From Verrucomicrobiales bacterium (GTDB lineage Bacteria > Verrucomicrobiota > Verrucomicrobiia > Limisphaerales > UBA1096): a stretch of DNA of 30,897 nucleotides. The DNA lies in assembly GCA_028817635.1 (NCBI GenBank), contig JAPPPH010000115.1:1-30897 (forward strand), read 5' to 3'. The position numbers and the translations under genes were made by a program. The notes under the pieces are model-generated. The model was not told the DNA's origin and searched no databases. It was given only the letters and a program-made list of their open reading frames with translations. Below, piece after piece: positions 1,599 to 29,038 of this stretch (the stretch's first letter is position 1; each line of letters starts with the position of its first letter).

Positions 1599-2471
1599 AT
1601 GGACGCCACGAGTGAAACCGGCCTAATCCTTTATCGCCGAATGCAGCTCATCCGGCAGACGGAACTGACTCTGGCCAGGGCGCACCAGCGAGGGTTGGTT
1701 CACGGTGCCTGTCACACGTATGTCGGTCAGGAGGCCATCGCTGCAGGGGTGTGTCATCACCTGCGCCGGGAGGATGTTGTGTTTAGTACGCACCGCGGCC
1801 ACGGCCATGCCCTGGCCAAGGGCATGGAGCCGGGAGAGTTGATCGCCGAGTTGTTTGGCAAAGAGACCGGATGTTCCGGGGGCCGTGGCGGCAGCATGCA
1901 CCTGTTCAAGCCGGAGATCGGGATGATGGGCACCAGCGGCATTGTCGGGCCTTGCATTCTACAGGCCTGTGGAGGGGGATACAGTTTCAAGCTGCTGGAC
2001 AGCGCCAACGTGGCCGTGGCGTTTTTCGGGGATGGAGCCGTGAACAACGGCGCCTTCCATGAGGGACTCAACATGGCCGCCATCTGGAAACTGCCGGTCC
2101 TGTTCGTCTGCGAGAACAATCAGTTCGCCACCGAGGTGCCGTTCGATTATTCCAGCGGCAACCCGAATGTCGCCCAACGTGCGGAGCAGTTCGGCATATG
2201 CGGAATTGAAGTCGACGGCAACAACGTCCACGAGGTTGAACAGGCAGCCGGGCGGGCTCTCGAGCAGGCGCGACAGGGGGGCGGCCCGACGTTGATCGAG
2301 TGCAAAACCTATCGCACCCGGGCGCACGCAGAGGGGATGGCTGACTTTACCTATCGCACTCGCGAGGCGGTGGATCAGTGGAAAAAACGCTGTCCCATCG
2401 AGCAGCTTGGCCAAGCACTGATCGAGGCCGGCCAAGCGGAGCCAGAGGATTTAAACAGCCATCGAGGATGA
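1599..2471 (+). CDS. TPP-dependent 2-oxoacid/acetoin dehydrogenase E1, alpha portion of a fused alpha/beta gene interrupted by a frameshift
   Basis: ATG 1599. Motifs GACHTYVGQEA, STHRGHGH, GRGGSMH, TPP-binding GDGAVNNGAFHEGLNMAAIWKLPVLFVCENN and TYRTRAHAEG. The frame ends early at TGA 2469-2471. Confidence 0.88.
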   Translation: MDATSETGLILYRRMQLIRQTELTLARAHQRGLVHGACHTYVGQEAIAAGVCHHLRREDVVFSTHRGHGHALAKGMEPGELIAELFGKETGCSGGRGGSMHLFKPEIGMMGTSGIVGPCILQACGGGYSFKLLDSANVAVAFFGDGAVNNGAFHEGLNMAAIWKLPVLFVCENNQFATEVPFDYSSGNPNVAQRAEQFGICGIEVDGNNVHEVEQAAGRALEQARQGGGPTLIECKTYRTRAHAEGMADFTYRTREAVDQWKKRCPIEQLGQALIEAGQAEPEDLNSHRG

Positions 2472-3576
2472 GGTCGCTGAACAGGTCGCGCTTGGCCAAG
2501 CGGAGGCCGAACGAGCCGCCTCGCCGGATCCGGCCACCGCCACCGCCCATGTTTATTCCTGTGCCGGCGCGGCTGTGCCCGATCCGCCAGAGCCGGGTGA
2601 CAGGGAGACGACATTTGTCGGCGCCACCCTCGAGGCTTTGGCCTTTGAGATGAAACGCAACCCGGCCATCTTCGTGATGGGCGAGGGCATCGGCCAGCGG
2701 GGTGGCAACTTTGGTACCACGCTTGGCCTTTACGAGGAACACGGGGCCACGCGCCTTTGCGACACGCCGATTTGCGAGCGTGGGTTTGTCGGGCTCGGGT
2801 GCGGCGCTGCGATGACCGGTTCACGGCCGGTGATCGATTTCATGTTCATTGATTTCATCAATGACGCTTTCGGCGAGATTGTGAATCAAGTGGCCAAAAT
2901 GCAGTACATGAGCAGCGGCCGGTTGAAGATGCCAATCCTCCTCCGAGGCTGCATCGGCGTTGGGCATAGCGCGGCCACGCATCACTCCGGAAATTACGCA
3001 TCGATCTACTCACACATCCCGGGTATTCGCGTGGTGTTGCCCTCGACTCCGTACGACGCCAAGGGGTTGTTTCATCATGCGCTGCGTTGCGATGACCCTG
3101 TCCTGTTTCTTGAGCATCGTGAACTGATGGCCACCCGGAGCTGCGTTCCCGAAACCGATTACGAGATCCCCTTCGGCCAGGCGCGCGTCGCCCGCGAGGG
3201 AACGGACGCCACCGTCGTCGCCTTGTCGCTCATGGTTCACCACACGCTGGCGGCGGCGGAAAAACTCGCGGGGGAGGGCCAGTCGATCGAGGTGATTGAT
3301 CCCCGGACAGTGTCCCCGCTGGACTTCGACACGATCCTTGGGTCGGTGGCAAAGACCGGCCGACTGCTCGTCGTGGACGAGGCTTTCGGCCCGTGCGGCT
3401 TCGCCTCGGAAATTGCCGCTCGGGTGGCCGACGAAGGCTTCGACGAACTCGACGCGCCGGTCAGGCGGCTCAACGGGGCCCACGCGCCCGTCCCCTACAG
3501 CCCGACGCTGGAGCAGGCCGTCGTACCCGGTGCGGACACCATCGAGGCCGCGATCCGCGCCCTACTGGAGGAGTGA
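2455..3576 (+). CDS. E1 alpha C-terminus plus E1 beta (transketolase-like) domain; continuation of the 1599 gene in the +1 frame
   Basis: Frame is open from 2455 and reads AIEDEVAEQVALGQAEAERAASPDPATATAHVYS (E1 alpha tail), then the beta motifs MGEGIG, DTPICE, FMFIDF, HHSGNY, PSTPYDAKGL, LFLEH, EVIDPRTVSPLD. Confidence 0.85.
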   Translation, partial: TAIEDEVAEQVALGQAEAERAASPDPATATAHVYSCAGAAVPDPPEPGDRETTFVGATLEALAFEMKRNPAIFVMGEGIGQRGGNFGTTLGLYEEHGATRLCDTPICERGFVGLGCGAAMTGSRPVIDFMFIDFINDAFGEIVNQVAKMQYMSSGRLKMPILLRGCIGVGHSAATHHSGNYASIYSHIPGIRVVLPSTPYDAKGLFHHALRCDDPVLFLEHRELMATRSCVPETDYEIPFGQARVAREGTDATVVALSLMVHHTLAAAEKLAGEGQSIEVIDPRTVSPLDFDTILGSVAKTGRLLVVDEAFGPCGFASEIAARVADEGFDELDAPVRRLNGAHAPVPYSPTLEQAVVPGADTIEAAIRALLEE

Positions 3577-3578
3577 TC

Positions 3579-4781
3579 ATGGCAACGGAAGTGATAGTAC
3601 CCCGCTTGGGCTGGTCGATGGAGGAAGGCACGTTTCAGGAGTGGCTCAAGGCCGATGGCGAACGAGTCGAGGCCGGGGACATGTTGTTTGTCTTGGAGGG
3701 GGACAAGGCCTCGCAGGAAGTTGAATCCTTTGACGCCGGCTACCTTCGCCTGCCGCCCGACGTGCCCCAACCAGGGGACGCCGTTGTGGTTGGCCAGCGT
3801 TTGGCTTTTCTCGCTGATGAAGACGACCTCGAGCCGTGGAAGGATTCGCCCCAGCCCGGGGCCGTACCCGACCGCAAAACCCCGCTTGGCCAAGCGCCCG
3901 GCCCGGTCACTGCCCAAACTAAGCCGGTGCGCTCCGGGAAATCCATCTCGCCGAGAGCCCTCCGCTTGGCCACCGAGTTGGACGTCGACTGGGATAATAT
4001 TGAAGGCACCGGCCGCGGCGGACGAATTCGCGAGCAGGACATTCGAGCGGCAGCCGCGCTTGGCCAAGCGGAGGCCCCGGGTACATCGTTGACAGGAAAA
4101 ACCGAGCCGCTCTCGGCCACCCGCAAGGCGATCGCCCGGCAGATGGTGATCGGCACCAACCTGACCGCCCCCGTCACCCTGCATCGCGAAGTGGATGCCA
4201 CGGCGTTGGTTGCCTTGCGCCGACAATTCAAACAGGCATGTGACGACAAAAAGACCGTGCCCACCTACAACGACATCCTGATTCGTCTGGTCGCGGAGGC
4301 TCTCAAGAGCCATCCGCGGCTAAACAGCCAGTGGCGCGAAGAGGGGATTTTTGTGCCGGAGCAAATTCATATCGCCTTCGCGGTGGACACGCCAACGGGG
4401 TTACTGGCGCCGGTTGTTAGCGATGCTGACCGGCTCTCCATCGACCAGTTGGCCGACCAAACCAAGGCGCTGGCGCAACAGGCCCGTGCTGGGCAACTGG
4501 AAGCGGGGCAGATGCGGGACGGCACGTTCACGGTGTCCAACCTAGGAGGTCTGGGCGTGGATTCGTTCACACCGGTGATCAATCCCCCGCAGTGCGCCGT
4601 CCTTGGCGTCGGGCGTATCCGGAAAAAAGTGGTGTGGCACGGGGAACAAGCCGTGGGCCGGGATCGATTGAACCTGAGCCTGACGTTCGACCACCGGATT
4701 GTCGACGGGGCCCCGGCGGCGAGGTTCCTTGACGATCTCGCCGGGCAAATCGAGCAACCGCCCGAGTGGCTGACGCACTGA
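3579..4781 (+). CDS. Dihydrolipoamide acyltransferase (E2) of a 2-oxoacid/acetoin dehydrogenase complex
   Basis: RBS GGAGGAG precedes ATG 3579. Lipoyl domain (LEGDKASQEV), peripheral-subunit-binding domain (SPRALRLA...GTGRGGRIREQDI) and catalytic GTFTVSNLG, PVINPPQ, DHRIVDG. Confidence 0.93.
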   Translation: MATEVIVPRLGWSMEEGTFQEWLKADGERVEAGDMLFVLEGDKASQEVESFDAGYLRLPPDVPQPGDAVVVGQRLAFLADEDDLEPWKDSPQPGAVPDRKTPLGQAPGPVTAQTKPVRSGKSISPRALRLATELDVDWDNIEGTGRGGRIREQDIRAAAALGQAEAPGTSLTGKTEPLSATRKAIARQMVIGTNLTAPVTLHREVDATALVALRRQFKQACDDKKTVPTYNDILIRLVAEALKSHPRLNSQWREEGIFVPEQIHIAFAVDTPTGLLAPVVSDADRLSIDQLADQTKALAQQARAGQLEAGQMRDGTFTVSNLGGLGVDSFTPVINPPQCAVLGVGRIRKKVVWHGEQAVGRDRLNLSLTFDHRIVDGAPAARFLDDLAGQIEQPPEWLTH

Positions 4782-4799: not shown

Positions 4800-6497
4800 A
4801 TGAAAAACAGACTCCCCATTCTCACACTGTTGGCTCTCGCCACTGCGCTTGGCCAAGGCGGCACAACACGGGCGGCCGATCCCGGGCAAAGCCGGTTTGT
4901 CGATCTCTCCCTCATCGTCGCCGAGAATTATCCCTGCACATGGGCCACCGGGTTCCCGCGATTTTACATGAATCGCTACATCCGGATCGGACCGTCGAGT
5001 CCCTACAACAGTGACCTGCTGCAGATCGACGGCAACACCGGCACACAGATCGACGTACCGCCCCACTCCATTCCGCGCCCCGGCAGCGGACTGAAGAACG
5101 CCGGGCCGCTTGGTCTCGAATACACCGACCGGACCCCGGCCTGGAAGCTGGTCGGCGAAGCCTGCGTCATCGACGTGACCGCTCTCCTCGATCAGGCGCC
5201 CAACGGCGTCAGTCCGCTCGTGAAAAAGGAACACATCATCGCGTGGGAAAAGAAACACCGGCCGCTTGGCCAGGGGGACATCGTGCTGCTGTGGAGCGGG
5301 TACAGTGACAAGTATTACAGGCCAATGCCGGAGGGCCGCCGGTTTCTTGCCCTGCCGCTTGAGAAAAAAACCCCGGCCTGGCCGGATCCCGATCCCGAGT
5401 GCATGGCTTACATGGCAAAAAAGGGCGTTACCGCAGTGGGATGCGACAGTCCCACGATGGGCCCGATGCCCGACCTTGCCGCTGCCGTTCACGACGAGGG
5501 CCTGTTGCGGGGGCTGGTCTTCACCGAGGGGGCCACGAATCTCCGGAAGCTCCCACCGACCGGGGCGTTTTACTGCATGATGGGGCCGAGGCATTTCGAG
5601 GGGCCGTATGGTGAGTGCCGGGCGTTTGCCATCGTGGGTGGGCAGGCCGAAGTTCTCATCAAAGCCGCGCGCGAAAAACGGGTGGCCGATCTCTCGGTAG
5701 TGATGGCGGCGAACCATCCACTGACATGGCCCGGCCGGGGCGTATCGAGACATCGCCACCCCTACACCCGGGCCGACTTTTTTTACGAGCCGGCGCTCGA
5801 CATTTTTCATCACACTCACCTGATGGACAGCCACGCCGGGACGCATCTCGTCCCGCCGGCCTACGCCCTGCCGGGGCCGGGGTTCAAAAACAAAAAATAC
5901 TCCCCGGAGGTGCGGCAATGGCTCAAGGAGTACGAGGGCCGGTTCGGAGAACGCGGCACCAGCCGGACGACCGCTGACAAGGTTCCACTCGCTCAGACCT
6001 CGGGAAACGCCCGCGTGATTGACGTGCGGCCCCTCGTCGGCACGACCGAGGGCAGCCAATGGCCTGCCTCGCCGGTGATCACCACCGCCCACATCGAGGC
6101 CTACGAAAAGAAGACCGGCAAACTCGCACCGGGCGACGTTGTGCTGTTTCGCACCGGGCATGTGGACACCCATTTCAAGCCGCTGCCGGAAGGCAAGGCA
6201 TGCATGGAAAATCCGATAAACGGACTCAGTGAAGGCTGGCCGGCCCCGGACGCGGAGGCCATCCAGCACTTGGCCAAGCGCGGAATCCGCTGCGTGGGCA
6301 CGGACGCTCCCACGCTCGGTGGCGTGAATCCAAAACAGGCGCTGTTCACCTACTGGATGTTGGGCACTCGGGGCATGGTTGGAGTCGAATTCCTGACCGG
6401 GCTTGGCCAACTGCCGGCCAAGGCGGTGTTTCTCTTTGCCCCGGTGAAAATAAAGGGCTGCCATGGTGGCCCCGGGCGTGCGATCGCGCTGTATTAA
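4800..6497 (+). CDS. Exported cyclase-family (kynurenine formamidase-like) metal hydrolase with two tandem domains
   Basis: N-terminal signal peptide. Both halves show a DLS start, a GT(H/Q) motif (NTGTQIDVPPH; HAGTHLVPPAY), GDIVLL/GDVVLF, GCDSPT/GTDAPT and E-x-x-x-x-L (EGATNL; EFLTGL). Confidence 0.75.
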   Translation: MKNRLPILTLLALATALGQGGTTRAADPGQSRFVDLSLIVAENYPCTWATGFPRFYMNRYIRIGPSSPYNSDLLQIDGNTGTQIDVPPHSIPRPGSGLKNAGPLGLEYTDRTPAWKLVGEACVIDVTALLDQAPNGVSPLVKKEHIIAWEKKHRPLGQGDIVLLWSGYSDKYYRPMPEGRRFLALPLEKKTPAWPDPDPECMAYMAKKGVTAVGCDSPTMGPMPDLAAAVHDEGLLRGLVFTEGATNLRKLPPTGAFYCMMGPRHFEGPYGECRAFAIVGGQAEVLIKAAREKRVADLSVVMAANHPLTWPGRGVSRHRHPYTRADFFYEPALDIFHHTHLMDSHAGTHLVPPAYALPGPGFKNKKYSPEVRQWLKEYEGRFGERGTSRTTADKVPLAQTSGNARVIDVRPLVGTTEGSQWPASPVITTAHIEAYEKKTGKLAPGDVVLFRTGHVDTHFKPLPEGKACMENPINGLSEGWPAPDAEAIQHLAKRGIRCVGTDAPTLGGVNPKQALFTYWMLGTRGMVGVEFLTGLGQLPAKAVFLFAPVKIKGCHGGPGRAIALY

Positions 6498-6507: not shown

Positions 6508-6530
6508 CGCTTGGCCAAGCGCTTGGCCAA
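6508..6530. repeat. Tandem palindrome pair (12-bp period) in the cyclase/DUF1501 gap
   Basis: CGCTTGGCCAAGCGCTTGGCCAA, 10 nt after TAA 6497. Confidence 0.95.
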
Positions 6531-6604: not shown

Positions 6605-8056
6605 ATGAAATTTTCTGATCACGAACGTGCCGTGCGCCGAATGATGCGTGCGCCGAAAACCCGGCGCGAGATGCTGAAGCAGTTGGGAGCCGGCATGGGT
6701 ACCATCGGCCTGGCTGGGTTGATGGCCGACAAGGGGCTGCTCGCCCCGGCCGCGCAGGCGTCCACCTCGCCGCTCGCGCCCAAGACGCCGCACTTCGCGC
6801 CCAAGGCCAAGCACATCATTCAACTATTCATGCCGGGTGGCCCATCGCAGGTCGATACGTTTGACCACAAGCCGGCGCTCACGGAGCACGCCGGCAAACG
6901 CCCGAGCCTTGTTGACCGCAAGACGCTGCGGAACACGAAGAACGGCCTGATGCCCTCGCCGTTTGGCTTCAAGCAGTACGGCCAGAGCGGCAAGTGGGTC
7001 AGTGATATTTTTCCCGAGGTGGGCAAGATGGTGGACGACATTTGTTTCGTCCACTCGATGCACACCGACATCCCGGAACACGCCGGGGCGATCATGATGA
7101 TGAACGTCGGGCACATTCAGCCGAACCGCCCAAGTCTCGGCTCATGGCTGGCCTATGGGCTGGGCAGTGAGAGTGATAATCTTCCCGGGTTTGTCGCGAT
7201 GTCTCCCCGCGCCCAACCGCGTGGCAAGCTGGCCAATTGGGGCAGCTCATTTCTCCCCGGTGCCTACGCCGGCTCGTACGTCAACATCGGCAGCATGAAG
7301 CCGGACGCCGTGATCGCCGACCTCAAAAACGGCAGCCTCAACCGTAGCGAGCAGCGCAAGCAGGCCGATCTTCTGGCCAAGTTGAACCGAGGGTTCCTCG
7401 CGCGCCGCGAAAAGGACGCGCAGATCGAAGCCGGCATCGAGGCGATGGAGATGGCCTTCCGCATGCAATTCAGTGTGCCGGACGTTTTTGATATCTCGAA
7501 GGAAAGCCAGGCCACGCGCGACCTGTACGGTGACAGCGAGTATGCCAAGGGCTGCCTCATCGCCCGGCGCCTCGTGGAGCGCGGTGTGCGGACGGTTCAA
7601 CTTTCGCACTCGATCGACGGGTACGACATCGCCTGGGACACCGGCCACGGTGACATCAAGGGCGGTCACGCCCGCTTGGCCAAGGCCTGTGACCAGGGGA
7701 TTGCCGCGTTGCTCAAGGATCTCAAGACGCGCGGATTGCTCGACGAGACTCTCGTAGTCTGGGGCGGTGAATTCGGCCGCGCACCAACTTCCGAAGGCAA
7801 AAACGGGCGCGACCACGATCACTACGGCTTCACCGTCTGGATGGCTGGTGGCGGTGTGAAACCCGGCTACAGCTATGGTGCCACCGACATGTTCGGCTGC
7901 TCAGCTGTCGAAAACCGCGTCCACGTCCACGACCTGCATGCGACCATCCTCAATCAGATGGGACTCGATCACGAGCAACTGACCTACCGTTACAGCGGCC
8001 GCGACTATCGGCTCACCGATGTCCACGGCAAGGTCGTCAAGGACGTCATCGCCTAG
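6605..8056 (+). CDS. DUF1501 family protein with Tat-like leader
   Basis: TRREML leader. Motifs AKHIIQLFMPGGPSQVDTFDHKP, RPSLGSWLAYGLG, GCLIARRLVERGVR, WGGEFGR, GRDH, VHVHDLHATIL, LTDVHG. Start chosen at ATG 6605. Confidence 0.88.
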   Translation: MKFSDHERAVRRMMRAPKTRREMLKQLGAGMGTIGLAGLMADKGLLAPAAQASTSPLAPKTPHFAPKAKHIIQLFMPGGPSQVDTFDHKPALTEHAGKRPSLVDRKTLRNTKNGLMPSPFGFKQYGQSGKWVSDIFPEVGKMVDDICFVHSMHTDIPEHAGAIMMMNVGHIQPNRPSLGSWLAYGLGSESDNLPGFVAMSPRAQPRGKLANWGSSFLPGAYAGSYVNIGSMKPDAVIADLKNGSLNRSEQRKQADLLAKLNRGFLARREKDAQIEAGIEAMEMAFRMQFSVPDVFDISKESQATRDLYGDSEYAKGCLIARRLVERGVRTVQLSHSIDGYDIAWDTGHGDIKGGHARLAKACDQGIAALLKDLKTRGLLDETLVVWGGEFGRAPTSEGKNGRDHDHYGFTVWMAGGGVKPGYSYGATDMFGCSAVENRVHVHDLHATILNQMGLDHEQLTYRYSGRDYRLTDVHGKVVKDVIA

Positions 8057-8063
8057 CCGCGCC

Positions 8064-10946
8064 ATGGCTTGCGGTCGTGCATTTTTGAGGCGTCCGTGGC
8101 TGCTCATCCTGTTCGCTGCCCAACTGGCTGCCCAAGCGGCGCCGGATTTTCAGCGCGACGTTCGGCCGATATTGGCCGGGCATTGTTTCAAGTGTCACGG
8201 GCCGGACGAGAAAACCCGTAAGGCCGATCTCCGGCTGGACGTCCGGCCGGAGGAGGACGCGTTCGCCCGCTTGGCCAAGCGCATCGACCACCCCGACCCC
8301 GACGAATTGATGCCGCCGCCCTCGGCCAAAAAGCCGCTGTCCGCCGCCCAAAAAAAGGTGCTTCAGAAATGGGTGCAGGCCGGTGCCGGGTACACTGAGC
8401 ACTGGGCGTTCATCCCGCCAAAGGCCAAGCCGTTGCCGAAGGTGAACCAGACCGACTGGCCCCGGAACGACATTGACCATTTCGTTTTGGCCCGGCTAGA
8501 GACGTCCGGAAAATCCCCTTCAGCGGAGGCGGATCGTTACCGGTTGATCCGCCGCCTGTCGCTGGATCTCATTGGCCTGCCGCCCACGCCGGGAGAGGTT
8601 CGGGAGTTCGTGGAGGACACACGGCCGGATGCCTACGAGCGGCTGGTGGATAGACTGCTCGACCGGCCGGAGTACGGCGAGCACTGGTCGTCGTCATGGC
8701 TCGACCTCGCACGTTATGCCGACACGAACGGCTACGAGAAGGATCGCCCGCGAACCATCTGGCCGTGGCGAGACTGGGTAATCCGCGCCATCAACGACGA
8801 CATGCCGTTCGATCAATTCACCGTCGAACAGATCGCCGGCGACATGCTGCCGGGCGCCACATTGTCGCAGCGCGTGGCCACTGGTTTTCATCGTAACACG
8901 ATGGTCAACGAGGAGGGCGGCATCGATCCGCTTGAGTTCCGATTCTACGCGATGGTCGATCGCGTCAACACCACCGGCACCGCGTGGCTTGGCCTCACGC
9001 TGGGCTGTGCGCAGTGTCACACGCACAAGTTCGACCCGGTACCGCACCGGTCGTACTACGAGCTGATGGCGTTCATGAACAACACGGCCGAACCGGAGCT
9101 GCCGCTGTTCACGCCGGAGCAGAAAATCAAAAAGGAATCGGTCGAGAAACAAATTCGCGAACAACTCTCGTCGCTCGCGGTCGACAACGCCAAGTATGAG
9201 GCTTGGCTCAACAAAGAACGGGCGACCGCCGTACCGTGGCAAACCATCGTCCCCGCAAAAATGAAGGCGAGCATCGGCTGGCTGGAGCTGCTCGAGGATC
9301 AATCCATTTTTGCCAGTGGCGACACGCGCAAGCACGACACCTACGAGCTTGAGTTTAACGATCTGCCCGAGGGGATCACCACGCTGCGGCTCGAGGCGTT
9401 GCCGGATGCGCGTCTGCCCAAGGGAGGCCCCGGCCGCGCGTATTACGAGGGGCCGAAGGGCGATTTTTTCCTGAGCGAACTCAGGCTCATCGCAGACGGC
9501 CAAGCGGTGAAATTGGAATCCGGCTCAGAAAATCATGCCAAGCAGTGGATCGGCAGCGGCAAACCCGGCGCGATGGCTGCGCTGGACGGCGATCTGCAGA
9601 CCGGCTGGTCTGCCAGCGGGCGCGAGGGCAAGCCCAGTCAGGCCGTTTGGCAACTGGCCAAGCCGCTCACAGCCAGCTCGCTCACGGTGCAAATGGATTT
9701 CAGCCGCCACTACTCCGCGAGCCTTGGCCGGTTTCGCTTCTCGGTGGCCAAGCGCGACAAAGCGCCCAAGGCAAAGGAACTGCCCGGCGACATCGCGGCC
9801 CGCTTGGCCAAGCCGGCCGATGCGCTTGGCCAAGCGGACCGCGACGCCCTCCGCGCACACTACATCGAGACCACCGGCGACGCGGCCGAGCTTCGGAAGC
9901 CGATAGAGGCACTTCGTCGGGGCATCCCCAAACCACCCACCACGCTTGTGATGCACGAGCGTCCGGCAAGCCGTGTTCGCCCGACGCACCGCCATCATCG
10001 CGGCGAATTCCTTTCGCCCCGCGAAACGGTTCTACCGAAAGTGCTGCCGTTCCTGCCGCCCCTCGCGGAGGAACTGCCGCGCAACCGGCTTGGTTTTGCG
10101 CGGTGGCTGGTTGACCCGGCCAATCCGCTCACGGCCCGTGTCACTGTCAACCGGCTGTGGGCATCCATTTTTGGTGAAGGCATCGTGCGCACGACGGAGG
10201 ATTTTGGTTACACCGGCGCTTCCCCCACGAATCCAGAGCTGCTCGACTGGCTCGCGTTGGAATTCATCCGTCAGGGTTGGTCTCAGAAAAAACTGCTGCG
10301 GCTCATCGTCACCAGTGCCACCTATCGGCAGCGATCCGGGACGGAGTACCGGCTGAGCGCAGAGCAGATTCGTGACTCTCTCCTGAGCGTCAGCGGCCTA
10401 CTGCATCAGCGGATCGGTGGGGCGAGCGTTTTCCCGCCGCAACCCGGGAGCATCGGCGAGGGCATCTACGGTGGCGGCGGCTGGAAAACCAGCTCAGGCG
10501 CGGATCGTTATCGACGGAGCCTTTATACCTACCGCAAACGCTCAATGCCCTACGCGATGCACGACACGTTTGATGCCCCCAGCCACGAAACCTGCGTGGC
10601 GCGTCGTGAGGTTTCCAACACCCCGTTGCAGGCGTTGACGCTGTTGAACGACCCCCTCCCCATCGAGGCAAGCCGCGCACTTGCCCAATGGGCGGTGCAG
10701 CAGTCCGGCGATCGGGCGTCTGTTTCGAAGGCGTTGTTTGAGCGATGCCTTTCTCGTCCGCCGGATGCCAGGGAACAAAAGATCGTACTGGATTATTTCG
10801 AAAAAACGCTTCGACGATTTGAATCCGGCGAAATCGATGCCGCCAAGGTGGCCGGCCCCGGCCCCGGGGACACAAACAAAAGAGCTGCATGGACCGCCCT
10901 GTCCCGTGCACTGCTCAACACACACGAATTTATCACCCGCAATTGA
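8064..10946 (+). CDS. PSD1/planctomycete cytochrome c domain protein (DUF1549/DUF1553 type)
   Basis: Signal peptide, [11 protein letters not shown], heme-binding [68 protein letters not shown]-like [21 protein letters not shown]. Confidence 0.88.
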
Positions 10947-10948
10947 GG

Positions 10949-12379: not shown

Positions 12380-12381
12380 CA

Positions 12382-12405
12382 CTTGGCCAAGCGCTTGGCC
12401 AAGCG
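12382..12405. repeat. Tandem palindrome pair filling most of a convergent intergenic gap
   Basis: CTTGGCCAAGCGCTTGGCCAAGCG lies between TGA 12379 and the minus-strand stop at 12413. Confidence 0.95.
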
Positions 12406-12412
12406 GACTTCG

Positions 12413-17032: not shown

Positions 17033-17114
17033 ACCAAACTTGGCCAAGCGCGGCTTGCGTCCCGGCGCGGGACGACTACACTTCCGCACCGCTTCAAGGC
17101 GGTACAAAAACGGT

Positions 17115-21226: not shown

Positions 21227-22610
21227 GCCGAGCCAAACCAAACGATGCCGCCGGCCGCTGACTTGGGCACTGTTGTGTTTTGCGCTTGGCCAAGCGCTTG
21301 GCCAGGCGGCGGGTGGAGACAGCCTACTCCGATTCATGGACGGCTCGATGCTTCACGGTGACCTGCAGCAGGTCAGCCTGCAGCAGGGCGTGCGCTGGGG
21401 GCATCCGGATTTGGCCAAGCCGGTCGATTTTAAGCCGGACAATCTGGCTTGGATTCGCTTCGAGGGTGCGAGGCCGGTGCAGCGGAACAACGATCCCACC
21501 GTGCACATTCGTTTTCACAACGGCGATGAGGTACTCGGCAATCTGGTCGCACTCGATGAACAACGCGTCCAGTTTTCGACTTGGTTCAACGAGCAACTTT
21601 CCGCACCGCGCAACGTGTTGCAGTCGCTCGCGTTTCTCTCACCCGGTTTCCGGATTTTGTACGAGGGACCGACCAGCATGGACGGTTGGAGGCTGGGCCG
21701 CGACCCGGACGCGTGGAAATACCGCGACGGGGTTTTCATCTCCGAGGGGGTTGGCGTGCTGGGCCGTGACTTCGGGCTCAAGGGATCGTCTCGCGTGGAG
21801 TTTGACCTCCAGTGGAATGGCACCTTCAGCTTGATTGTACCGGTGTACACCTCGGCGCTCGACCGGTTCGACTATCGGAGCAACTCCTACATGTTTTACA
21901 TCAGCCGCGGCTACGTGAGCCTTCAGCGCGTGCAGAGCGGAGCCGGCGTGCGCAACCTTGGCCAAGGGCAGATCCCGGAGATGCAATCGAAGAACCGCGT
22001 GTCGGTCGAGATTCGCGTCAACAAGGACAAGGCGGAGATGGAGCTGTATATCGACCGGAAGCTCGTCCGCAAGTGGCGCGACACGAACGGCTTCGCCGCG
22101 ACCGGTTCAGGCATCTCGTTTTTCTCCCAGCTCAACGGCCCGATCGTGCGCGTCAGCAACCTGCGCGTCTCAGCTTGGGACGGTCACTCCGACCCGGTGC
22201 AATTCGCGCAGGCCGTGAGCGACGAGGACATGGTTTACCTGAAGAACCGCGATGAGGTGCCGGGCAAAGTCAAACTGATGAACGGCAAAAACGTGATCAT
22301 CAACTCGCTGGGCGAAGACCTGAACATCCCGCTGGACCGTATAATCCGTGTGTCTCTGGCCAAGCCGGAAGCCAAAGCGGAGGTCAACCGGCCGTGGGAG
22401 GTGCGCGCCCACTTTGCCGGCGGCGCGGCAGTGTCGTTCAATCTGAATCAATGGGAGGGAACAACGCTCACCGGCCGGAGCCGAAACTTTGGCCCGGTGT
22501 CATTCGACTCCAAGTACATTCGACGTCTGCAATTCAATCTCGGTTCGTCACAGAAAACCAACGACACCAACGCCGGTGGAGCGAACCAACTTTGGCCATG
22601 GGATGACTGA
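21216..22610 (+). CDS. Exported beta-rich hypothetical protein, paralogue of the next gene
   Basis: Signal peptide ending FALGQALGQA. Repeated (N/D)G(D/S)..G beta-hairpin units and a lectin-like core. Start overlaps the upstream gene. Confidence 0.7.
   Translation: MSGKPSQTKRCRRPLTWALLCFALGQALGQAAGGDSLLRFMDGSMLHGDLQQVSLQQGVRWGHPDLAKPVDFKPDNLAWIRFEGARPVQRNNDPTVHIRFHNGDEVLGNLVALDEQRVQFSTWFNEQLSAPRNVLQSLAFLSPGFRILYEGPTSMDGWRLGRDPDAWKYRDGVFISEGVGVLGRDFGLKGSSRVEFDLQWNGTFSLIVPVYTSALDRFDYRSNSYMFYISRGYVSLQRVQSGAGVRNLGQGQIPEMQSKNRVSVEIRVNKDKAEMELYIDRKLVRKWRDTNGFAATGSGISFFSQLNGPIVRVSNLRVSAWDGHSDPVQFAQAVSDEDMVYLKNRDEVPGKVKLMNGKNVIINSLGEDLNIPLDRIIRVSLAKPEAKAEVNRPWEVRAHFAGGAAVSFNLNQWEGTTLTGRSRNFGPVSFDSKYIRRLQFNLGSSQKTNDTNAGGANQLWPWDD
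21283..21305. repeat. Tandem palindrome pair inside a signal peptide (ALGQALGQ)
   Basis: CGCTTGGCCAAGCGCTTGGCCAG. Confidence 0.93.
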
Positions 22611-24144
22611 GGCGATTTCAAAACCGATCCGTTCGAAGTGCGCTTGGCCAAGCGCACTTGGCCTTGTGTTGGCGCTTGGCCAAGCGGTGGCCAACGACGC
22701 TCCAAAGTCCACGATCCACTTTACCAACGGCGATTGGCTGCGCGGCAGTCTGGCCGCCTACGATCAGGCCAGTGGTGTTTTGTGGGAGCATCCGGACGCG
22801 GGCGGCACGATGCAGTTCAACATCAGCCGCGTCACCGAGTTGACCCTCGACGGCGCCGCCCCTTCCGCCCTTCCGCCCGGCAACCTTTGCGAAGTGATGC
22901 TGGTCAATGGCGACCACTTTCGCGGCAACCTCACCGGAACCACCGAGCAGCATTACCTGCTGGACACGTGGCATGCCGGCACGCTCCAACTTGCCCGCAA
23001 ATCGGTGCGCAAAATTGCTCCGTTGCCGCGTGGGTTGAAAACCGTTTTTCAGGGGCCAGAAAATGACGACGACTGGACGCACGGCAAGATCACCAACGAG
23101 ACGATTGGCGAGTCGGGCAACTGGCGCTATCACAACGGCGGTTTTCATGCCAAGCCGGCGGCGTCCATCGCGAAGGATCTGAAGCTGCCGGAACGTTCAC
23201 GCATCTCGTTTGACCTCGAGTGGAACGGCTCACTGCATTTGGCTTTTGCATTGTACACCGACACGCTGCACCCGATCAGCCTGTCCACCAAGGAGGACGA
23301 ACCGGACTTTGGCGGCTTCTACAGCGTGCAGCTCAACAGCTATTCCGTAAACCTCCTGCCGGTGAAAAAACACGAGCCGTTGACGTACCTCGGGCAGGCG
23401 ACACTGCCCGGTTTCCGTAACGAGACCAACTCGCACATCGAGTTTTTCGCCAGTAAACCGGAGAAGATGATCGCCGTTTCGATCAACGGCAAAGTCATTC
23501 GCAAGTGGACGGATCACGACGGATTCGTCGGGGAAGGTACCGGGGTGCGCATCGTGCATCAGGGGCGCGGCGCCGTCCGCATTGCCAATCTGCGTGTCGA
23601 GGAGTGGGACGGCCGGTTTCAGGAACCGCCCACGCACCCGGTTGGCGCGGAGAAGGATCTCGTGAAGCTGATCAACAACGATCGGATGGAAGGCACCGTC
23701 ACCGGTGTTGTCGACGACAAGCTGTTGGTGAAGACGCCCGAGGGTGAATTCCCTGTGCCACTCGACCGCGTCAAGCAAGTTGAACCCGCCACCACCAAAA
23801 CCATCCTCGACATGCCGCTCAAGCAGCGCGTCATTACCCACCTGAGCGACGGCAGCCAGATGACCTTTGTGCTGGATCGATGGAAAAAAGACGGCGTCGA
23901 GGCGAGCAGCCCGGGATTTGGCAAGGCGACGTTCAAGCCGTCATCGATCATGCGGATGGAGTTTCAGGCTCACCTCGCCCGGGCCGACATCAAGACGATT
24001 TATCGAGTGCAGCAGGGCGACACAATTAACAGCATCGCCCGCAAACGCGGCGCCTCAGTGCAGGCCATCCTCAAGGCCAACCCGTCGCTCAAGCCCGGCC
24101 AATTGAGAATCGGCCAACAGGTGATCATCCCCCTCAAAAAGTGA
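22603..24144 (+). CDS. Exported beta-rich protein with C-terminal LysM peptidoglycan-binding domain
   Basis: ATG 22603 overlaps the upstream stop. LysM YRVQQGDTINSIARKRGASVQAILKANPSLKPGQLRIGQQVIIP. The body is colinear with the 21216 protein. Confidence 0.8.
   Translation: MTEAISKPIRSKCAWPSALGLVLALGQAVANDAPKSTIHFTNGDWLRGSLAAYDQASGVLWEHPDAGGTMQFNISRVTELTLDGAAPSALPPGNLCEVMLVNGDHFRGNLTGTTEQHYLLDTWHAGTLQLARKSVRKIAPLPRGLKTVFQGPENDDDWTHGKITNETIGESGNWRYHNGGFHAKPAASIAKDLKLPERSRISFDLEWNGSLHLAFALYTDTLHPISLSTKEDEPDFGGFYSVQLNSYSVNLLPVKKHEPLTYLGQATLPGFRNETNSHIEFFASKPEKMIAVSINGKVIRKWTDHDGFVGEGTGVRIVHQGRGAVRIANLRVEEWDGRFQEPPTHPVGAEKDLVKLINNDRMEGTVTGVVDDKLLVKTPEGEFPVPLDRVKQVEPATTKTILDMPLKQRVITHLSDGSQMTFVLDRWKKDGVEASSPGFGKATFKPSSIMRMEFQAHLARADIKTIYRVQQGDTINSIARKRGASVQAILKANPSLKPGQLRIGQQVIIPLKK
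22636..22686. repeat. Palindrome cluster: 24-bp perfect palindrome, a partial copy and a second 14-mer
   Basis: AAGTGCGCTTGGCCAAGCGCACTT (22636-22659), overlapping CACTTGGCC, then CGCTTGGCCAAGCG (22673-22686). Confidence 0.93.
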
Positions 24145-24762
24145 TCACTCGCCCACGCTGCGATAGGCGGCGTAATTTGTCGGGATGCCCTGCGCATTAA
24201 ACTGCTGCTCGAAGTCGGTGACCAACTGCTTCATCGGTTCCGGCGTCTCGACAGTTTCAAATCCTACCGCATCACCGAACACCTCGAGCATCTGTTCAAA
24301 GTATTCGATGTTGTCCGTGCGCAGGTAGACGATGCCACCCTCCCTCAGCAGCCGCTTGGCCAAGGGCGGGAACGGCTCGCTGATCAGCCGGTTTTTGTGG
24401 TGCCGCTTCTTCGGCCACGGGTCGGGAAAGTAAACGTGAATCGCATCCAGCAAACCGGGCGGCAGCAGGTACTCCAGCACGTACGCCGCCTCGGCCCGGA
24501 GCAGCCGCAGGTTTTTCAATCCGGCACGATGCCCCTTGCGGTCAAGCTTGGTGATACGGCCGAGCAGCCGCTCCAGCGCGACGATGTTCCGGCCCGGATT
24601 GGCCAAGGCGTACTGCAGTGTGAACGAGCCGTCGCCGCAACCCAGCTCAAGCTCCAGCGGTTGCCTCGTGGAAAACAGCCCGGCCAGGTCGATCGGCTCG
24701 ACGGCGGAGGTGATTGGGTGAAGCAGCGTCTGCCCCGGCGGTAAAACTTTCTTACGACTCAT
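24145..24762 (-). CDS. trmB: tRNA (guanine-N7)-methyltransferase
   Basis: LELELGCGDGSF, FPDPWPKKRHHKNRLI, LRTDNIEYF, TDFEQQF...G. Confidence 0.95.
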   Translation of the reverse strand: MSRKKVLPPGQTLLHPITSAVEPIDLAGLFSTRQPLELELGCGDGSFTLQYALANPGRNIVALERLLGRITKLDRKGHRAGLKNLRLLRAEAAYVLEYLLPPGLLDAIHVYFPDPWPKKRHHKNRLISEPFPPLAKRLLREGGIVYLRTDNIEYFEQMLEVFGDAVGFETVETPEPMKQLVTDFEQQFNAQGIPTNYAAYRSVGE

Positions 24763-24807
24763 CGCTTGGCCAAGCGCTATTGGGTTAAGCGGGCACCGAT
24801 AACCGCA

Positions 24808-26229
24808 TCACCGATAGTCCCTGCCGTTCAGGCTGTTGATGACCGACTGCTGCCAGGTGACGAGGTCGGCCTTCATCCGGCCGAAGCGCTTGGCCAAGCG
24901 CGATTTATCCTCATTGAGCAGGTTGTTCGACTCCTTCGGGTCGTTGACTAGGTGGTACAGCTCGTAGTTGAACTGGGTCGCGTTTTTCTTCACCGGAATG
25001 CGGTGCAACTTATAGTCGCCCTCGATCCAGGCGGAGTGGCCGGGCAGGTTGTCGGCCGCATGAAAATGTCCAATCTGTCCCTCCGCTGCAGCCGGTTGCT
25101 GGTTGCCGGCGAGCTGCTCCTGCCGCAGCGCCTCAAGCATTCGGCGGGCGTGGCGGCCAAATCCGCGGTTGTGATATGTCCAGAATCCCATCGGCTGTTT
25201 GCGCACCTGTTTTTCCCCGCGAAGCAACGGGGCGAGGCTGATGCCGTCGAGTCTCGGCTGGTTTTTCGGCAGAGCCACGCCGGCCAACTCGAGCAGCGTC
25301 GGATAGATGTCCGAGGTGTTGGCGTTGATGTTCGTGATGCGGTTGGCCTTGACCCGGGACGGCCACTCAAGCACGGCCGGCACCCGGATGCCGCCTTCGT
25401 ACAGGCTGCCCTTTCGTGCGCGTAGACCGCCGCTGGAGCCCTTGGGTAACGAGCCGTTGTCGCTGCAGTACCAGAGCACCGTGTTGTCGGCGATACCCAG
25501 CTTGCGTAGACCGCTGCGCATTTTTCCGAGCGCGGCGTCCATCGCGGTGATTTCACCGTAAAAATGGGCCACACCGTCCGGCTGGTCGCTGTACATATTT
25601 TTAAACTTATCGACCGCCACATGCGGGCTGTGCGGATTGCCAAACCAGACCACCGCAAGGAACGGCTTCTTGCCCTTGGCCACCTTGCCGATCCAGTCCA
25701 TCGCCAGCCCGGCGGTGACGTCGGAACTTTCACCCTTGGTCTCGATCACCTTGCCGTTGTGGCTGAAGAGCGGATTGTTCTCGTAAAAATTCGGGCTGGA
25801 AAACCATTCATCGAAGCCGCTGTTTCCCGGGCTGGCCGCACCGTCCGCGCGCACGGAGCCGATGTGCCATTTGCCGAAGTGCCCGGTCGTGTAGCCGGCC
25901 TTTTTCAGCGCCTCGGCGATGGTAATCTCCTGCGGCCGCAGCGTGTGTCCCCACGCAAAACAGCCGAAGCGGTTGGGGTGCCGGCCGGTCATCACGCTGC
26001 CGCGCGTCGGCGAGCAGACGGCTGCCGCCGCATAAAACCGGTCGAACCGCAGACCGGTTCGCGCCATCTCGTCCATCACCGGCGTCTTGAGCACGGGATG
26101 GCCGTTGTAGCCGGTGTCGCCCCAGCCCTGGTCATCGGCCATGCAGAGAATGAAGTTCGGGCGCTCGTCCGCCAGTGGCCCGACCAGCGAGGCGGCGGCG
26201 AACAGGATCAAACTGAACATGTTTTTCAT
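24808..26229 (-). CDS. Cys-type (formylglycine-dependent) sulfatase, arylsulfatase A-like, exported
   Basis: Signal peptide, RPNFILCMADDQGWGD, signature CSPTRGSVMTGR, GYTTGHFGKWH, SDNG, KGSLYEGGIRVP, ELYHLVNDPKESNNL. Confidence 0.92.
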   Translation of the reverse strand: MKNMFSLILFAAASLVGPLADERPNFILCMADDQGWGDTGYNGHPVLKTPVMDEMARTGLRFDRFYAAAAVCSPTRGSVMTGRHPNRFGCFAWGHTLRPQEITIAEALKKAGYTTGHFGKWHIGSVRADGAASPGNSGFDEWFSSPNFYENNPLFSHNGKVIETKGESSDVTAGLAMDWIGKVAKGKKPFLAVVWFGNPHSPHVAVDKFKNMYSDQPDGVAHFYGEITAMDAALGKMRSGLRKLGIADNTVLWYCSDNGSLPKGSSGGLRARKGSLYEGGIRVPAVLEWPSRVKANRITNINANTSDIYPTLLELAGVALPKNQPRLDGISLAPLLRGEKQVRKQPMGFWTYHNRGFGRHARRMLEALRQEQLAGNQQPAAAEGQIGHFHAADNLPGHSAWIEGDYKLHRIPVKKNATQFNYELYHLVNDPKESNNLLNEDKSRLAKRFGRMKADLVTWQQSVINSLNGRDYR

Positions 26230-26365
26230 GTGAACGTTCCAACTCAGGTTGGCCGGAAAGAGTTGCCGCCGGGAGGCGATTAGTCGAGCGCTGAAGGCAT
26301 CAACAGGAATGCTTTGCCCTTGCCACGGGTGGGGGTTGGCCGGATGCTCCCGGTCGTTTAATCCA

Positions 26366-27696
26366 ATGATGAAAGCCAAATCACTTCACTGCATCGCTGC
26401 GCTTGGTCTTGGGCTGGCGCTTGGCCAAGCGGCCGACCCGGTTCGCGAACGCGTGGCCAAAGGGGTCGCCACCGAGCTGCCTTCGCTCGTCTCGCTGTAC
26501 AAACATTTTCACGCCAACCCGGAGCTGTCATTCATGGAGGTCGAGACGGCCAAGCGCATGGCCGCCTAGTTGCGGACTGCCGGTTTGAAGGTCACCACCG
26601 GCGTTGGCGGTCACGGGATCGTCGGCATCCTGAAAAATGGCCCCGGCCCGACGCTGCTTATTCGTGCCGACATGGATGGCCTGCCGGTGCAGGAGGAGAC
26701 CGGCCTGCCGTACGCCAGCAAAAAACAGATGGTCGATGAGCAGGGCAACACGGTTTACACCATGCACGCCTGTGGCCACGACGTGCACATCACCAGTTTC
26801 GTTGGGACGGCCCGTATGCTCGGCCAGCTTCGTGATCAGTGGAGCGGCACGCTGGTGATGATCGGCCAACCGGCGGAAGAACGCGGCGCCGGCGCGCGCG
26901 CGATGTTGGCGGATGGCTTGTACACGAGGTGGCCGGTGCCGGACTACTGCATCGGCCTGCATGTGGCGTCCGATCAGCCAGCCGGGACGATTGGTCACAA
27001 CTCCGGCTACGTGTACGCGAATGTCGATTCGGTGGACATCACCGTGCGCGGTCAGGGCGGGCACGGTTCGCAACCGCAGGCTGCGAAGGATCCCATCGTG
27101 CTCGCGGCGCAGATTGTGGTCGCGCTGCAAACGATCGTCAGCCGCGAAGTGCATCCCCGCGAACCGGCGGTCGTCACCGTCGGCTCGATCCACGGCGGCA
27201 CCAAGCACACATCATCCCCAACGAAGTGAAGATGCAGTTGACCATCCGCTCCTACACGGACGCTGTCCGGAATCAAATTCTCGCCTCGATCAAGCGCATC
27301 TGTCTCGGTACCGCGCAGGCCGCCGGCTTGGCCAAGGAGCAAATGCCGATCGTCACCGTGAAGGACGAGTTCACGCCGTCAGCCTACAACGACCCGGTCT
27401 TGGCCAAGCGCGTGACCGATACGTTCGCCGCGTGGCTGGGCAAGGGGGCGCTGATCAAGCGGCAGCCCACGATGGGCGGCGAGGATTTCGGGATGTACGG
27501 GCGCACCAAGCACAAGGTGCCGACGTTCATGTTCGCGCTGGGCACGGTATCGACCGACTTGATCAGGCGCTTTCGTGCCACCGGCAAACCGCTGCCGATG
27601 GTGCACTCCAGCACCTACGCGCCGGACATCGAGCCAACCCTCCGAACCGGCGTCACCGCCACCACCGCCGCTGCGCTTGAGCTGTTGAAAAAATAA
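26366..27696 (+). pseudogene. M20D-family amidohydrolase broken by an in-frame TAG (26567-26569) and a 1-nt deletion near 27209
   Basis: Pieces join into one protein: HFHANPELSFME, LIRADMDGLPV, MHACGHDVH, QPAEE, GGHGSQP..AKDPI, VVTVGSIHGGTKH/IIP, MGGEDF, VHS. Could be real decay or assembly error. Confidence 0.85.
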
Positions 27697-27710
27697 GCCG
27701 GCGTGGGGCG

Positions 27711-28979
27711 TTATTTCCTCGGCTTGCCGATGCAGTAAAGGTGTTCGTGGGTGCGAATGAAGAGTTGCCCCTGACTGATCGCCGGGCTGGCGGAGACCGG
27801 TTCGCCCAGTTTGTTTTGGGTCACCACCTCAAAGGTTTCACCGGGGCGAATGACCGAAGTCACGCCAAGGTCTGAGGTGAAGTAAACCAGCCCGTCCGCC
27901 GAGACGGGTGACGGACTGTGCCCGCCCGGGAGTCGTTCCTGCCAATGTCGGCGGCCGGTCTTGGCGTCAAAGCAGCTCGCAATCCCGCTGTCCGCGACAA
28001 CCAACAAAAATCGTCCAGCTATAATCGGCGAAGGGACATAGGCTGCCCCGCGTGTGGTGCGCCATGCGATGTGCGAGTCGGTGACATTACCGGTGCCGTC
28101 CGGCTTGATCGCTAGGATGTGCCTCTGGGGATACCCGCCGGTCACAAATACGTATTCGCCGTTGTGGACCATCGACGCGACAAACTGCTCGGGCGGCCCG
28201 TCCACGATCCAGTGCCGCTTGCCATTGCGCGGATCGTAGCTCGCTACCGACAGGCTGCCGGAAAGGATCATCTGCGTACGGCCACCGATCTCGCGGATGA
28301 TCGGCGTGACGTAGCTGCGCGTTCTGTTTTCGCGCATCGTCCGCCAGCGTTCACTGCCGGACTCGCGGTCGAGCGCGACAATGTAGGCATCCCCATCGTG
28401 GTCGCCGTTGATAATCACGAGGGTCTCACACAAAACCGGGCAGGTGTTGAAGCCGTGCGCGCTCACGAAGCCGCCGACGGCTGTTTTCCACTTTTGATTT
28501 CCGTCCAGATCGTAGGCCGCGACGACAATCTTCCCCGGCGTGATCAACCGCTCCGAGCCGACGTTGGGAGCGACCACCTTGTCGCCCTCGGCACGCATGA
28601 AGGTGACGTAGACCTGTTTGCCATCCGTGGCCGGAGTGCCGGAGGCGCGACTGTTCAGGCGGTGAATCGACTCCGGCGGAGACTGCACCACGACTTTGCC
28701 CCAGATCGTTTTGCCGGTGCGCCGGTCGAGGCACAAAAGGTGTCGCTCGTTTTTCTCGGTCAGGCTGGCGGTCAGAAAAATGCGGTCAGCCCAGATGACG
28801 GGAGATGAGTGGCCCTCACCGGGGATGGCAACTTTCCAAGCGACATTTTCCGTCGCACTCCAATTCGTCGGGATGTTTTTCTCGGGACTGATCCCGTCCC
28901 CGCTTGGCCCGCGCCAACCCGGCCAATTTCCGGCCGACAATGTGGCGGTGAAAAGAAAGAGTGAAATGAGGATTCGCAC
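27711..28979 (-). CDS. PQQ-binding-like beta-propeller repeat protein (BamB-like, PVC type), exported
   Basis: GTG start, signal peptide, [29 protein letters not shown], repeated ALD..(T/S)G...W units, [14 protein letters not shown]...LYCIG. Confidence 0.85.
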
Positions 28980-28991
28980 GCCGGGAGTTTA

Positions 28992-29038
28992 GTGCGCTTG
29001 GCCAAGCGCACAAGAACAACCAAGCGCTTGGCCAAGCG
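28992..29038. repeat. Two palindrome copies 30 bp apart in a divergent intergenic gap
   Basis: GTGCGCTTGGCCAAGCGCAC (28992-29011) and CAAGCGCTTGGCCAAGCG (29021-29038). Confidence 0.95.

Follow-up and report, generated by a model that had tools for sequence, protein, structure and literature searches.

The DNA considered here is contig JAPPPH010000115.1 (positions 1 to 30,897, 30,897 nt, hereafter the window) of a marine Verrucomicrobiales metagenome-assembled genome (MAG), and our subject is a perfect 14-bp palindrome, CGCTTGGCCAAGCG, which together with its core, CTTGGCCAAG, is iterated through the window, the genome and most of the genus, and which fades in the lineages that have lost genes for DNA uptake. 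In the window there are genes for PSCyt/PSD1/DUF1501 proteins and sulfatases, for a cyclase and for a LysM protein; a PSCyt2/PSD1 gene stands between two paralogous DUF1501 genes (6605-12379), with several sulfatase genes further along. This set is typical of bacteria of the Planctomycetes, Verrucomicrobia and Chlamydiae (PVC) and bears no relation to the function of the motif, in agreement with an earlier reading of the same DNA from its letters alone (the sequence-only reading), which saw no cognate gene in it.

Sites in the window and in the genome

Exact counting gives 18 copies of the 14-mer and 34 of the core in the window, the same numbers at the same coordinates as the sequence-only reading had reported, against 0.00 and 0.08 expected from dinucleotide-preserving shuffles; the ~63% GC that it had assumed is replaced by an actual assembly value of 58.3%. 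The window is contig C44 of that assembly (G000; 3.32 Mb, 524 contigs), which as a whole holds 3000 cores (0.90 per kb), 1852 12-mers and 1296 14-mers, ruling out confinement to one contig, and whose top-ranked k-mer at each k from 8 to 14 is the motif word. Within the genes of our own gene model (2721 genes, 90.8% coding) we counted 796 14-mers, 75-fold more than the 10.6 +/- 3.0 left by a within-gene synonymous-codon shuffle, so that the enrichment holds under a codon-preserving null; a shuffle of codon order leaves 0.1.

The sites of the window are given here with the strands of the coding sequences (CDS) in which they lie, the palindrome itself having none. A core at 2406-2415 is read as LGQ(A) in CDS 1599-2471(+), and a perfect 14-mer at 2489-2502 is intergenic, 18 nt past the stop at 2471. 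CDS 3573-4781(+) holds 14-mers at 3883-3896 (read as PLGQAP) and 4057-4070 (ALGQAE), and CDS 4800-6497(+) holds cores at 4848-4857 (LGQG) and 6269-6278 (LAKR), followed by an intergenic 14-mer at 6508-6521, 11 nt past the stop at 6497. The first DUF1501 gene, 6605-8056(+), has a core at 7675-7684 (RLAKA; the related genome G018 has CCTGGCCAAG there). The PSCyt2/PSD1 gene, 8064-10946(+), has a 14-mer at 8268-8281 (RLAKR) and, 22 bp or two helical turns apart and in different frames, a core at 9803-9812 (RLAKP) and a 14-mer at 9823-9836 (ALGQAD). The second DUF1501 gene, 10943-12379(+), has a 14-mer at 11079-11092 (SLGQAR) and a core at 11344-11353 (HLAKV), and in the convergent spacer behind it (12379-12413) two copies 12 bp apart with overlapping flanks, a core at 12382 and a 14-mer at 12392, occupy 12382-12405.

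Further along, a core at 15344-15353 is read as SLAKR in CDS 15020-15763(-) and is not kept in G018. CDS 16091-17032(+) has a core at 16189-16198 (PLAKS) and a 14-mer at 16811-16824, read as RLAKR where orthologues from motif-poor genomes of the genus have RLG(N/T/L)R without any indel; another core (17039-17048) sits at the boundary between this gene and CDS 17040-20237(+). In the latter a 14-mer at 18421-18434 (ALGQAE) is intact in 5/5 aligned motif-rich genomes and has 2-4 mismatches in motif-poor ones, a core at 18770-18779 spells LAKR against LEKA, LSEA or LDKS in motif-poor orthologues, and a core at 18990-18999 (KLGQAA) is absent in G018 (CTCGGCCAGG). Near the start of CDS 21216-22610(+) a 14-mer at 21283-21296 runs on into a partial next unit (…GCGCTTGGCCAG); the same gene has a core at 21957-21966 (NLGQGQ), and just past its stop at 22610, ahead of the LysM gene or at its start, two 14-mers 32 bp apart (three helical turns) lie within 22641-22686. 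CDS 24145-24762(-) carries a core at 24355-24364 (PLAKR), the 45-bp spacer between it and the sulfatase gene 24808-26379(-) a 14-mer at 24763-24776, and the 3' end of the sulfatase gene a further 14-mer at 24887-24900 (RLAKR). A 14-mer at 26418-26431 is in the divergent spacer 26379-26570, which holds only a doubtful small open reading frame. Two cores, 27327-27336 (GLAKE) and 27399-27408 (VLAKR), are 72 bp or about seven turns apart in CDS 27226-27696(+), and two 14-mers 30 bp apart (28995-29038) mark a divergent spacer and the 5' end of the sulfatase gene 28992-30527(+).

Across G000 the information in the motif is limited to ~16 bp, (S)CG-CTTGGCCAAG-CG(S), and the flanks beyond are random, which shows that no larger repeat is built around the word, though site flanks often extend as partial neighbouring 12-bp units. 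The five inner positions of each half-site are nearly invariant (~193 single-mismatch variants in total, against 1296 perfect copies), the two outer positions are tolerant (20-198 copies per variant), and deamination-type variants show no special depletion. Hairpins of -5.5 and -11.1 kcal/mol are predicted for the 16-mer and the 24-mer, respectively. Six studies of marine, seawater, coral-reef and ballast-water metagenomes contribute 14 DNA runs in which a 3-kb stretch with four motif sites is present. Independent contigs from 4 of these studies have no listed differences inside these sites, and a single contig covers the entire stretch with 8 differences. Since the sites are unchanged in independent runs and contigs, they are not an assembly artefact, and the excess in window and genome is confirmed as real. 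A literature search turned up no paper treating the word as a genomic element, only matches to primers and unrelated constructs, in line with the sequence-only reading, which did not recognise it as a described element.

Protein imprint, origin and helical phasing

Although 73% of cores lie inside genes, intergenic density is 3.5-5.7 times the genic density (cores, 2.58 per kb in non-coding DNA and 0.73 per kb in CDS; 14-mers, 1.54 and 0.27 per kb). Convergent spacers are the densest, with 5.2 per kb and 41% of them carrying at least one site, and 338 of 587 intergenic sites lie no more than 30 nt past a stop codon; no T-run follows these post-stop sites, and genuine terminator hairpins sometimes stand further downstream. 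Over 5-kb bins the distribution is more even than Poisson (mean 5.66, variance 4.17), with one empty bin seen against 1.3 expected. No contig of G000 is depleted and no motif-free island, as a sign of foreign DNA, was found among them, though MAG binning would tend to discard such islands.

Genic copies occur in three frames and both gene orientations, with a marked bias: 14-mers are read as LGQA 499 times, as RLAKR 250 times and as AWPS 68 times. The imprint on the proteome is strong. There are 391 occurrences of ALGQA where 2.5 are expected, and 270 of RLAKR where 1.8 are expected (about 150-fold each), the motif spells 84% of all LGQA peptides, and motif-encoded tripeptides are 4.4-4.7-fold over-represented, so that the motif excess goes beyond codon choice.

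Alignment of positions 16000-22700 of the window with four motif-rich and three motif-poor congeners reveals how the sites came about. Every coding site in the alignment stands without indels opposite orthologous sequence that is already similar, and the substitutions that separate them are both synonymous and non-synonymous (for example RLG(N/T/L)R to RLAKR, LEKA to LAKR); some sites are common to all motif-rich genomes and others are lineage-specific. Such indel-free replacement of similar sequence indicates that sites are made by point substitution and are continuously gained and lost, and it rules out an origin by insertion or as a mobile unit. They are also better kept than their surroundings: over 22.3 kb aligned between G000 and G018 at 91.4% identity, 21/26 cores are intact in G018 compared with 47% of control 10-mers, and 11/12 14-mers compared with 36% of controls, which argues that the sites are actively maintained. 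In the same comparison, BLAST blocks of unlike divergence (94% and 89%; 90% and 92%) break at two motif-bearing spacers, 12354-12393 and 24778-24801. These breaks could reflect ordinary divergence of spacers or recombination tracts that end at motif sites.

Neighbouring copies are placed with a helical period. Spacings between adjacent TTGGCCAA cores in G000 peak at 12, 21, 30, 42, 51, 63, 72, 84, 93, 105, 114 and 126 bp with near-empty troughs between, giving a dominant period of 10.45-10.5 bp that reaches 170 bp. The Rayleigh R is ~0.39-0.42 for all classes of pairs, namely those within one CDS (n=826), those within a CDS at a distance that is not a multiple of 3 (n=413), those crossing a gene boundary (n=237) and those wholly in non-coding DNA (n=121, p about 6e-9), and R is at most 0.10 at control periods of 8 and 13 bp. 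The other major clade shows the same preference: in five of its genomes, spacings of 20-22 bp account for 128 pairs and those of 24-26 bp for 17. Tandem copies at exactly 12 bp account for 178 pairs, 12 bp being the closest spacing that lets two copies share a CG flank. Protein alpha-helix (heptad) periodicity is rejected as the sole cause, as non-coding, boundary-crossing and different-frame pairs share the period; phasing is thus a property of the DNA duplex, and the site appears to be read as double-stranded DNA from one side. Palindromy and phasing together suggest a dimeric, multivalent reader that touches one face of the double helix.

Distribution in the genus and co-loss with competence genes

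A tandem 22-mer of the motif occurs in marine Verrucomicrobiales and Verrucomicrobiota MAGs from many sources (MED711, ARS81, UBA6775, UBA673, NIOZ-UU28, ETNP, Arabian Sea and Tara bins). The GTDB family consists of one genus with 26 genomes, all of them MAGs 59-93% complete, and 21/26 are filled with the same consensus. The 14-mer has 150-1296 copies in 20/25 genomes counted (G000 included) and only 1-7 in the remaining five (G001, G003, G005, G007 and G024, clade P); G041 stands outside this count and is intermediate by its 8-mer count. In the other families of the order, 0-2 14-mers were counted in each of sixteen genomes. The ratio of TTGGCCAA to its reversed control is 3.4-5.2 in clade P, 10.1 in G041, 15.4 in G010, 17.1 in G011 and 20-44 in all others, including G002, the sister of G010 (20.2). 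Relics persist in clade P. Its genomes would be expected to contain no more than 0.006 perfect 14-mers but have 1-7, and 12-mers allowing one mismatch are 13-40 times as frequent as their control. The earlier description of a lineage-specific, actively maintained signal in a PVC bacterium, resembling cyanobacterial highly iterated palindromes such as HIP1, is therefore borne out, with the lineage now identified as a genus of marine Verrucomicrobiales.

A tree of the 1065-aa protein encoded at 17040-20237, a single gene with long-branch outgroups, resolves clade A (G000, G004, G018, G011), clade P, clade B1 (with G041) and clade B2 (with G010). Clade P is sister to clade A (support 100/98), two outgroups join among the B clades, and an approximately unbiased (AU) test rejects the arrangement in which all motif-rich genomes form one clade (p = 0.014). 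This rejection and the nested position of P indicate that the motif is ancestral to the genus and was lost in P. G011 holds two full-length copies of this single-copy marker (L243 on G011:C100 and L264 on G011:C53), 94% and 90% identical to that of G000, and is probably a mix of two strains or species, which calls for care with its motif ratio and with the genes it seems to lack.

The genes that are absent exactly in the lineages with the lowest motif ratios are comEC (PF03772), dprA (PF02481) and comM (PF13541), all three carried by G000. In a family search each was found in 14/19 genomes outside the loss set, a share that fits a MAG completeness of 59-93%, and in 0/7 of the loss set (the five genomes of clade P, G041 and G010); in G011, 67% complete, none of the three was found. 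Synteny supports two of these losses. The order antiporter-dprA-HMGL of G015, G022 and G000 becomes antiporter-HMGL in G041, G010 and G007, with gaps of 140-545 bp, and the order Ffh-comEC-UNK of G009, G018, G000 and G015 (UNK, a 1062-aa protein of unknown function) becomes Ffh-UNK in G010 and four of the poor genomes. In G041 the comEC slot between ffh and the UNK gene (L290:5131-7806, G041:C40) is filled by a 481-aa trypsin and Endonuclease_I fusion, a TPR protein and a VanZ-like protein, so that a putative secreted nuclease now stands where the DNA channel was. Clean deletion or replacement within conserved synteny shows that the losses of comEC and dprA are real and not assembly gaps; that of comM was established by family search. 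As P, G041 and G010 are phylogenetically separate, competence genes were lost three times independently.

Other candidates do not track the motif. The UNK gene was considered as a co-lost gene and rejected, since single-frame tblastn matches place it in the loss lineages too. A contig labelled Methanobacteriota archaeon BH15 (L122, JAERSV010000037.1, GC 47%) has an 8-kb giant open frame that is weakly similar to this gene and contains 6 TTGGCCAA cores as well as the tandem 22-mer; the contig is probably verrucomicrobial and misbinned. ComEA-like HHH_3 proteins (PF12836) and secretins (PF00263) are present in all clades and so do not discriminate. In several genomes, low-GC ones among them, one secretin domain lies within frames of ~3900-4300 aa (G009:C16:32713-33210, G007:C18:35329-35829, G041:C63:20021-20518 and others), which suggests either a giant secretin-containing protein or several fused genes. 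Among DNA methyltransferases of the C5 (PF00145), N4/N6 (PF01555) and Dam-type (PF02086) families, none was found in G000 and the motif-rich genomes save one C5 enzyme in G009, and several are present in the motif-poor G007; a search for Vsr (PF03852) in five motif-rich genomes, of which three have a completeness of 90% or more, gave no match. None of these families goes with the motif, which argues against a methylation-linked origin, and of the two enzymes that a Dcm/Vsr-type very-short-patch-repair word needs, the C5 methyltransferase is missing from nearly all motif-rich genomes and Vsr from the five searched.

Base composition differs along the same lines. Sampled genomic GC is 56-65% in the motif-rich genomes, 41-46% in the five of clade P and about 51% in G041, and G010 is almost unchanged. 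For the 17040-20237 gene and its orthologues (L240-L266), GC at third codon positions (GC3) ranges over 0.72-0.89 in competent genomes but falls to 0.63 in G041 and to 0.38 in P. The drop in P and G041 could follow from the loss of transformation-linked GC-biased gene conversion, or from a common cause such as drift or AT pressure.

A putative self-DNA signal and its alternatives

Because the word fades in each lineage that deleted DNA-uptake genes, it is most likely a self-DNA tag for natural transformation. We give a probability of about 0.6 to this reading, in which the motif is a putative palindromic signal of the DNA-uptake type, maintained by a drive linked to transformational uptake and recombination. 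A receptor of the uptake machinery, probably dimeric, would bind double-stranded DNA at the palindrome, and would bind best where several copies lie on one helix face. Fragments with good copies would enter through ComEC, be processed by DprA and ComM and be recombined, so that mutations that improve near-matches would be over-transmitted, a molecular drive that may act with or without selection. Such a drive would fill weakly constrained places, namely post-stop spacers and helix-compatible LGQA or RLAKR positions in proteins, and once the uptake genes were lost it would stop and the sites would decay by mutation. That sequence specificity lies in uptake and not further on in transformation is our inference, as is the nature of the receptor. 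The sequence-only reading had named four possible functions for the word. DNA uptake gains from the absence of comEC, dprA and comM where the motif has decayed, methylation-directed repair loses by the lack, in the motif-rich genomes searched, of Vsr and of methyltransferases of the three families, and binding by a nucleoid protein is compatible with the helical phasing.

This conclusion must be tempered by several observations. There are three loss events only (sign test 3/3, one-sided p = 0.125), and the drop in G010 is modest (15.4, compared with 20.2 in its sister G002). The loss of GC in P and G041 (GC3 0.38 and 0.63, against 0.72-0.89) means that part of their motif decay could come from a general AT shift or from weaker selection, which would also have removed dispensable competence genes, a common cause in place of a direct link. 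The tree is of one gene with long-branch outgroups, the genomes are 59-93% complete MAGs, and the comM loss comes from a family search only. No candidate for a cognate receptor was found, the ComEA-like HHH_3 proteins and secretins occurring in motif-rich and loss genomes alike. Finally, the known uptake sequences, the DNA uptake sequences (DUS) of Neisseriaceae and the uptake signal sequences (USS) of Pasteurellaceae, are asymmetric and not palindromes (PMC3868556, PMC3458573, PMC2817400).

In other respects the likeness to DUS, whose receptor is ComP, and to USS is close. They too are evenly spread at about one copy per kb and are found within genes as well as in spacers, where they are roughly threefold denser and often sit directly behind a gene; they arise by point mutation, show biased reading frames and over-represented peptides, are clade-specific and are tied to the comEC/dprA transformation pathway. 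Both leave an imprint on the proteome (PMC2817400), and that of the present motif is stronger (4.4-4.7-fold for tripeptides and about 150-fold for pentapeptides, against about 2-fold for USS tripeptides). The specificity profile, nearly invariant inside and tolerant at the outer two positions, resembles that of DUS and ComP, where the inner bases are critical and the outer ones tolerated (PMC3868556). Haemophilus USS has helically phased parts (PMC3458573), whereas here whole copies are mutually phased over at least 170 bp. The motif further differs in being a perfect 14-16-bp palindrome in Verrucomicrobiota, DUS and USS being asymmetric and proteobacterial, and in that its uptake bias is only predicted.

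Cyanobacteria have highly iterated palindromes of their own, HIP1 (GCGATCGC) among them (PMC4390886, PMC5861425, PMC13756078, bioRxiv 10.1101/2024.09.10.611283), which are likewise hyper-abundant within and between genes and kept across species. A recent link of HIP1 to natural transformation has led to its being proposed as an uptake signal (PMC13756078), and the present picture fits that proposal. Hallmarks of HIP1 are conserved orphan methyltransferases (DmtA, DmtC) and a methylation-dependent effect on transformation (PMC4390886; bioRxiv 10.1101/2024.09.10.611283). HIP1 is an 8-bp word, recognised by these methyltransferases, and has a reported periodicity of 10-90 kb; ours has 14-16 bp and a period of 10.5 bp and occurs without any of the three methyltransferase families searched. 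Given the lack of an accompanying methyltransferase or Vsr, we regard the two as distinct.

The alternative that survives best, though we consider it unlikely, is that the word is bound by a nucleoid-associated or chromosome-organising protein, dimeric and abundant, and that it is selected for chromosome structure (cf. HIP1, Xu et al. 2018) and linked to competence only indirectly. A perfect 14-16-bp palindrome with a sharp core is typical of dimeric DNA-binding proteins, and the conserved sites, the 10.5-bp phasing to 170 bp and the even spread on a 5-kb scale would all suit such a role. The motif shares its 12-16-bp palindromic form, presumably read by a dimer, with parS/ParB, NBS/Noc, matS/MatP and SBS/SlmA. 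Those sites number a few to tens per genome, not thousands, and are confined to chromosome regions; none is known to reshape protein sequences. The present word, in contrast, has thousands of evenly spread copies that do. No candidate protein was found, and the reading would not explain why three separate lineages that deleted comEC, dprA and comM show motif decay.

Somewhat further down we place a sequence-biased repair or gene conversion within the cell (very-short-patch or Chi-like, acting after uptake), neutral and without any uptake tag, which we hold to be quite improbable. It would account for the origin of sites by substitution at near-matches and for the joint drop of GC and motif density upon loss of recombination genes, and a Chi-like role in recombination has been proposed for HIP1 beside that in uptake (bioRxiv 10.1101/2024.09.10.611283). 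It does not predict the helical phasing of neighbours, deamination-type variants are not specially depleted, and the motif-rich genomes, with the exception of the C5 enzyme in G009, lack methyltransferases of the families searched, as the five genomes searched lack Vsr. Known Chi sites are asymmetric and oriented, unlike this palindrome.

The remaining two readings are each very improbable and are essentially excluded. A miniature mobile element or transposition footprint, either like the repetitive extragenic palindromic (REP) and bacterial interspersed mosaic element (BIME) sequences spread by RAYT transposases or as a 12-bp frame-preserving insertion unit, might be suggested by the 178 tandem pairs at exactly 12 bp, by the abundance of palindromic units past stop codons, as for REPs, and by the hairpins possible for the 16-mer and 24-mer (-5.5 and -11.1 kcal/mol), but it is already contradicted by aligned coding sites that are all indel-free, the flanks past about 16 bp are uninformative, the 12-bp spacing is explained by the shared CG flank, and REPs, imperfect palindromes of about 35 bp that transposition spreads, stay strictly outside genes, whereas the motif is mostly genic (73% of cores) and born by substitution. 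A role in RNA, as a 3'-end hairpin, terminator or mRNA stabiliser, would suit the clustering 0-30 nt past stops and the density between convergent genes, but no T-run follows the sites (which rejects a terminator), real terminator hairpins often stand further downstream, most copies are genic in three frames and both orientations, and the 10.5-bp phasing belongs to double-stranded DNA.

Going beyond a self-DNA tag maintained through transformation, we tentatively consider, at rather less than even odds, that the motif may represent an uptake signal of a new class, a palindrome read by a dimer, with cooperation between copies on one helix face so that DNA is recognised as a phased array and not by a single site, and that the transformation it drives may also hold genomic GC up by GC-biased gene conversion, given that GC fell from about 60% to 43-51% in two of the three lineages without comEC and dprA. 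If this is true, a single genus offers three natural knock-outs that link uptake sequences, recombination and base composition, and the drop in two of the three makes the link between transformation and GC-biased gene conversion testable.

Uptake sequences have so far been established in two proteobacterial families only, and for 30 years HIP1 has been without a settled function. A word iterated a thousand-fold is now seen in a third phylum, unrelated to these, and it decays in three natural loss-of-competence lineages, which provides comparative evidence for the upkeep of such words by transformation. The phasing predicts something of the receptor's structure, namely a multivalent reader contacting one face of the helix, and the 16-mer provides a handle for pull-downs, for following this group, which is abundant in the sea, and for genetic tools that may be developed in Verrucomicrobia. 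Taken together, these observations suggest that the tagging of self DNA is more widespread than is known, and more varied in form, being palindromic, methylation-independent and helically phased in this genus.

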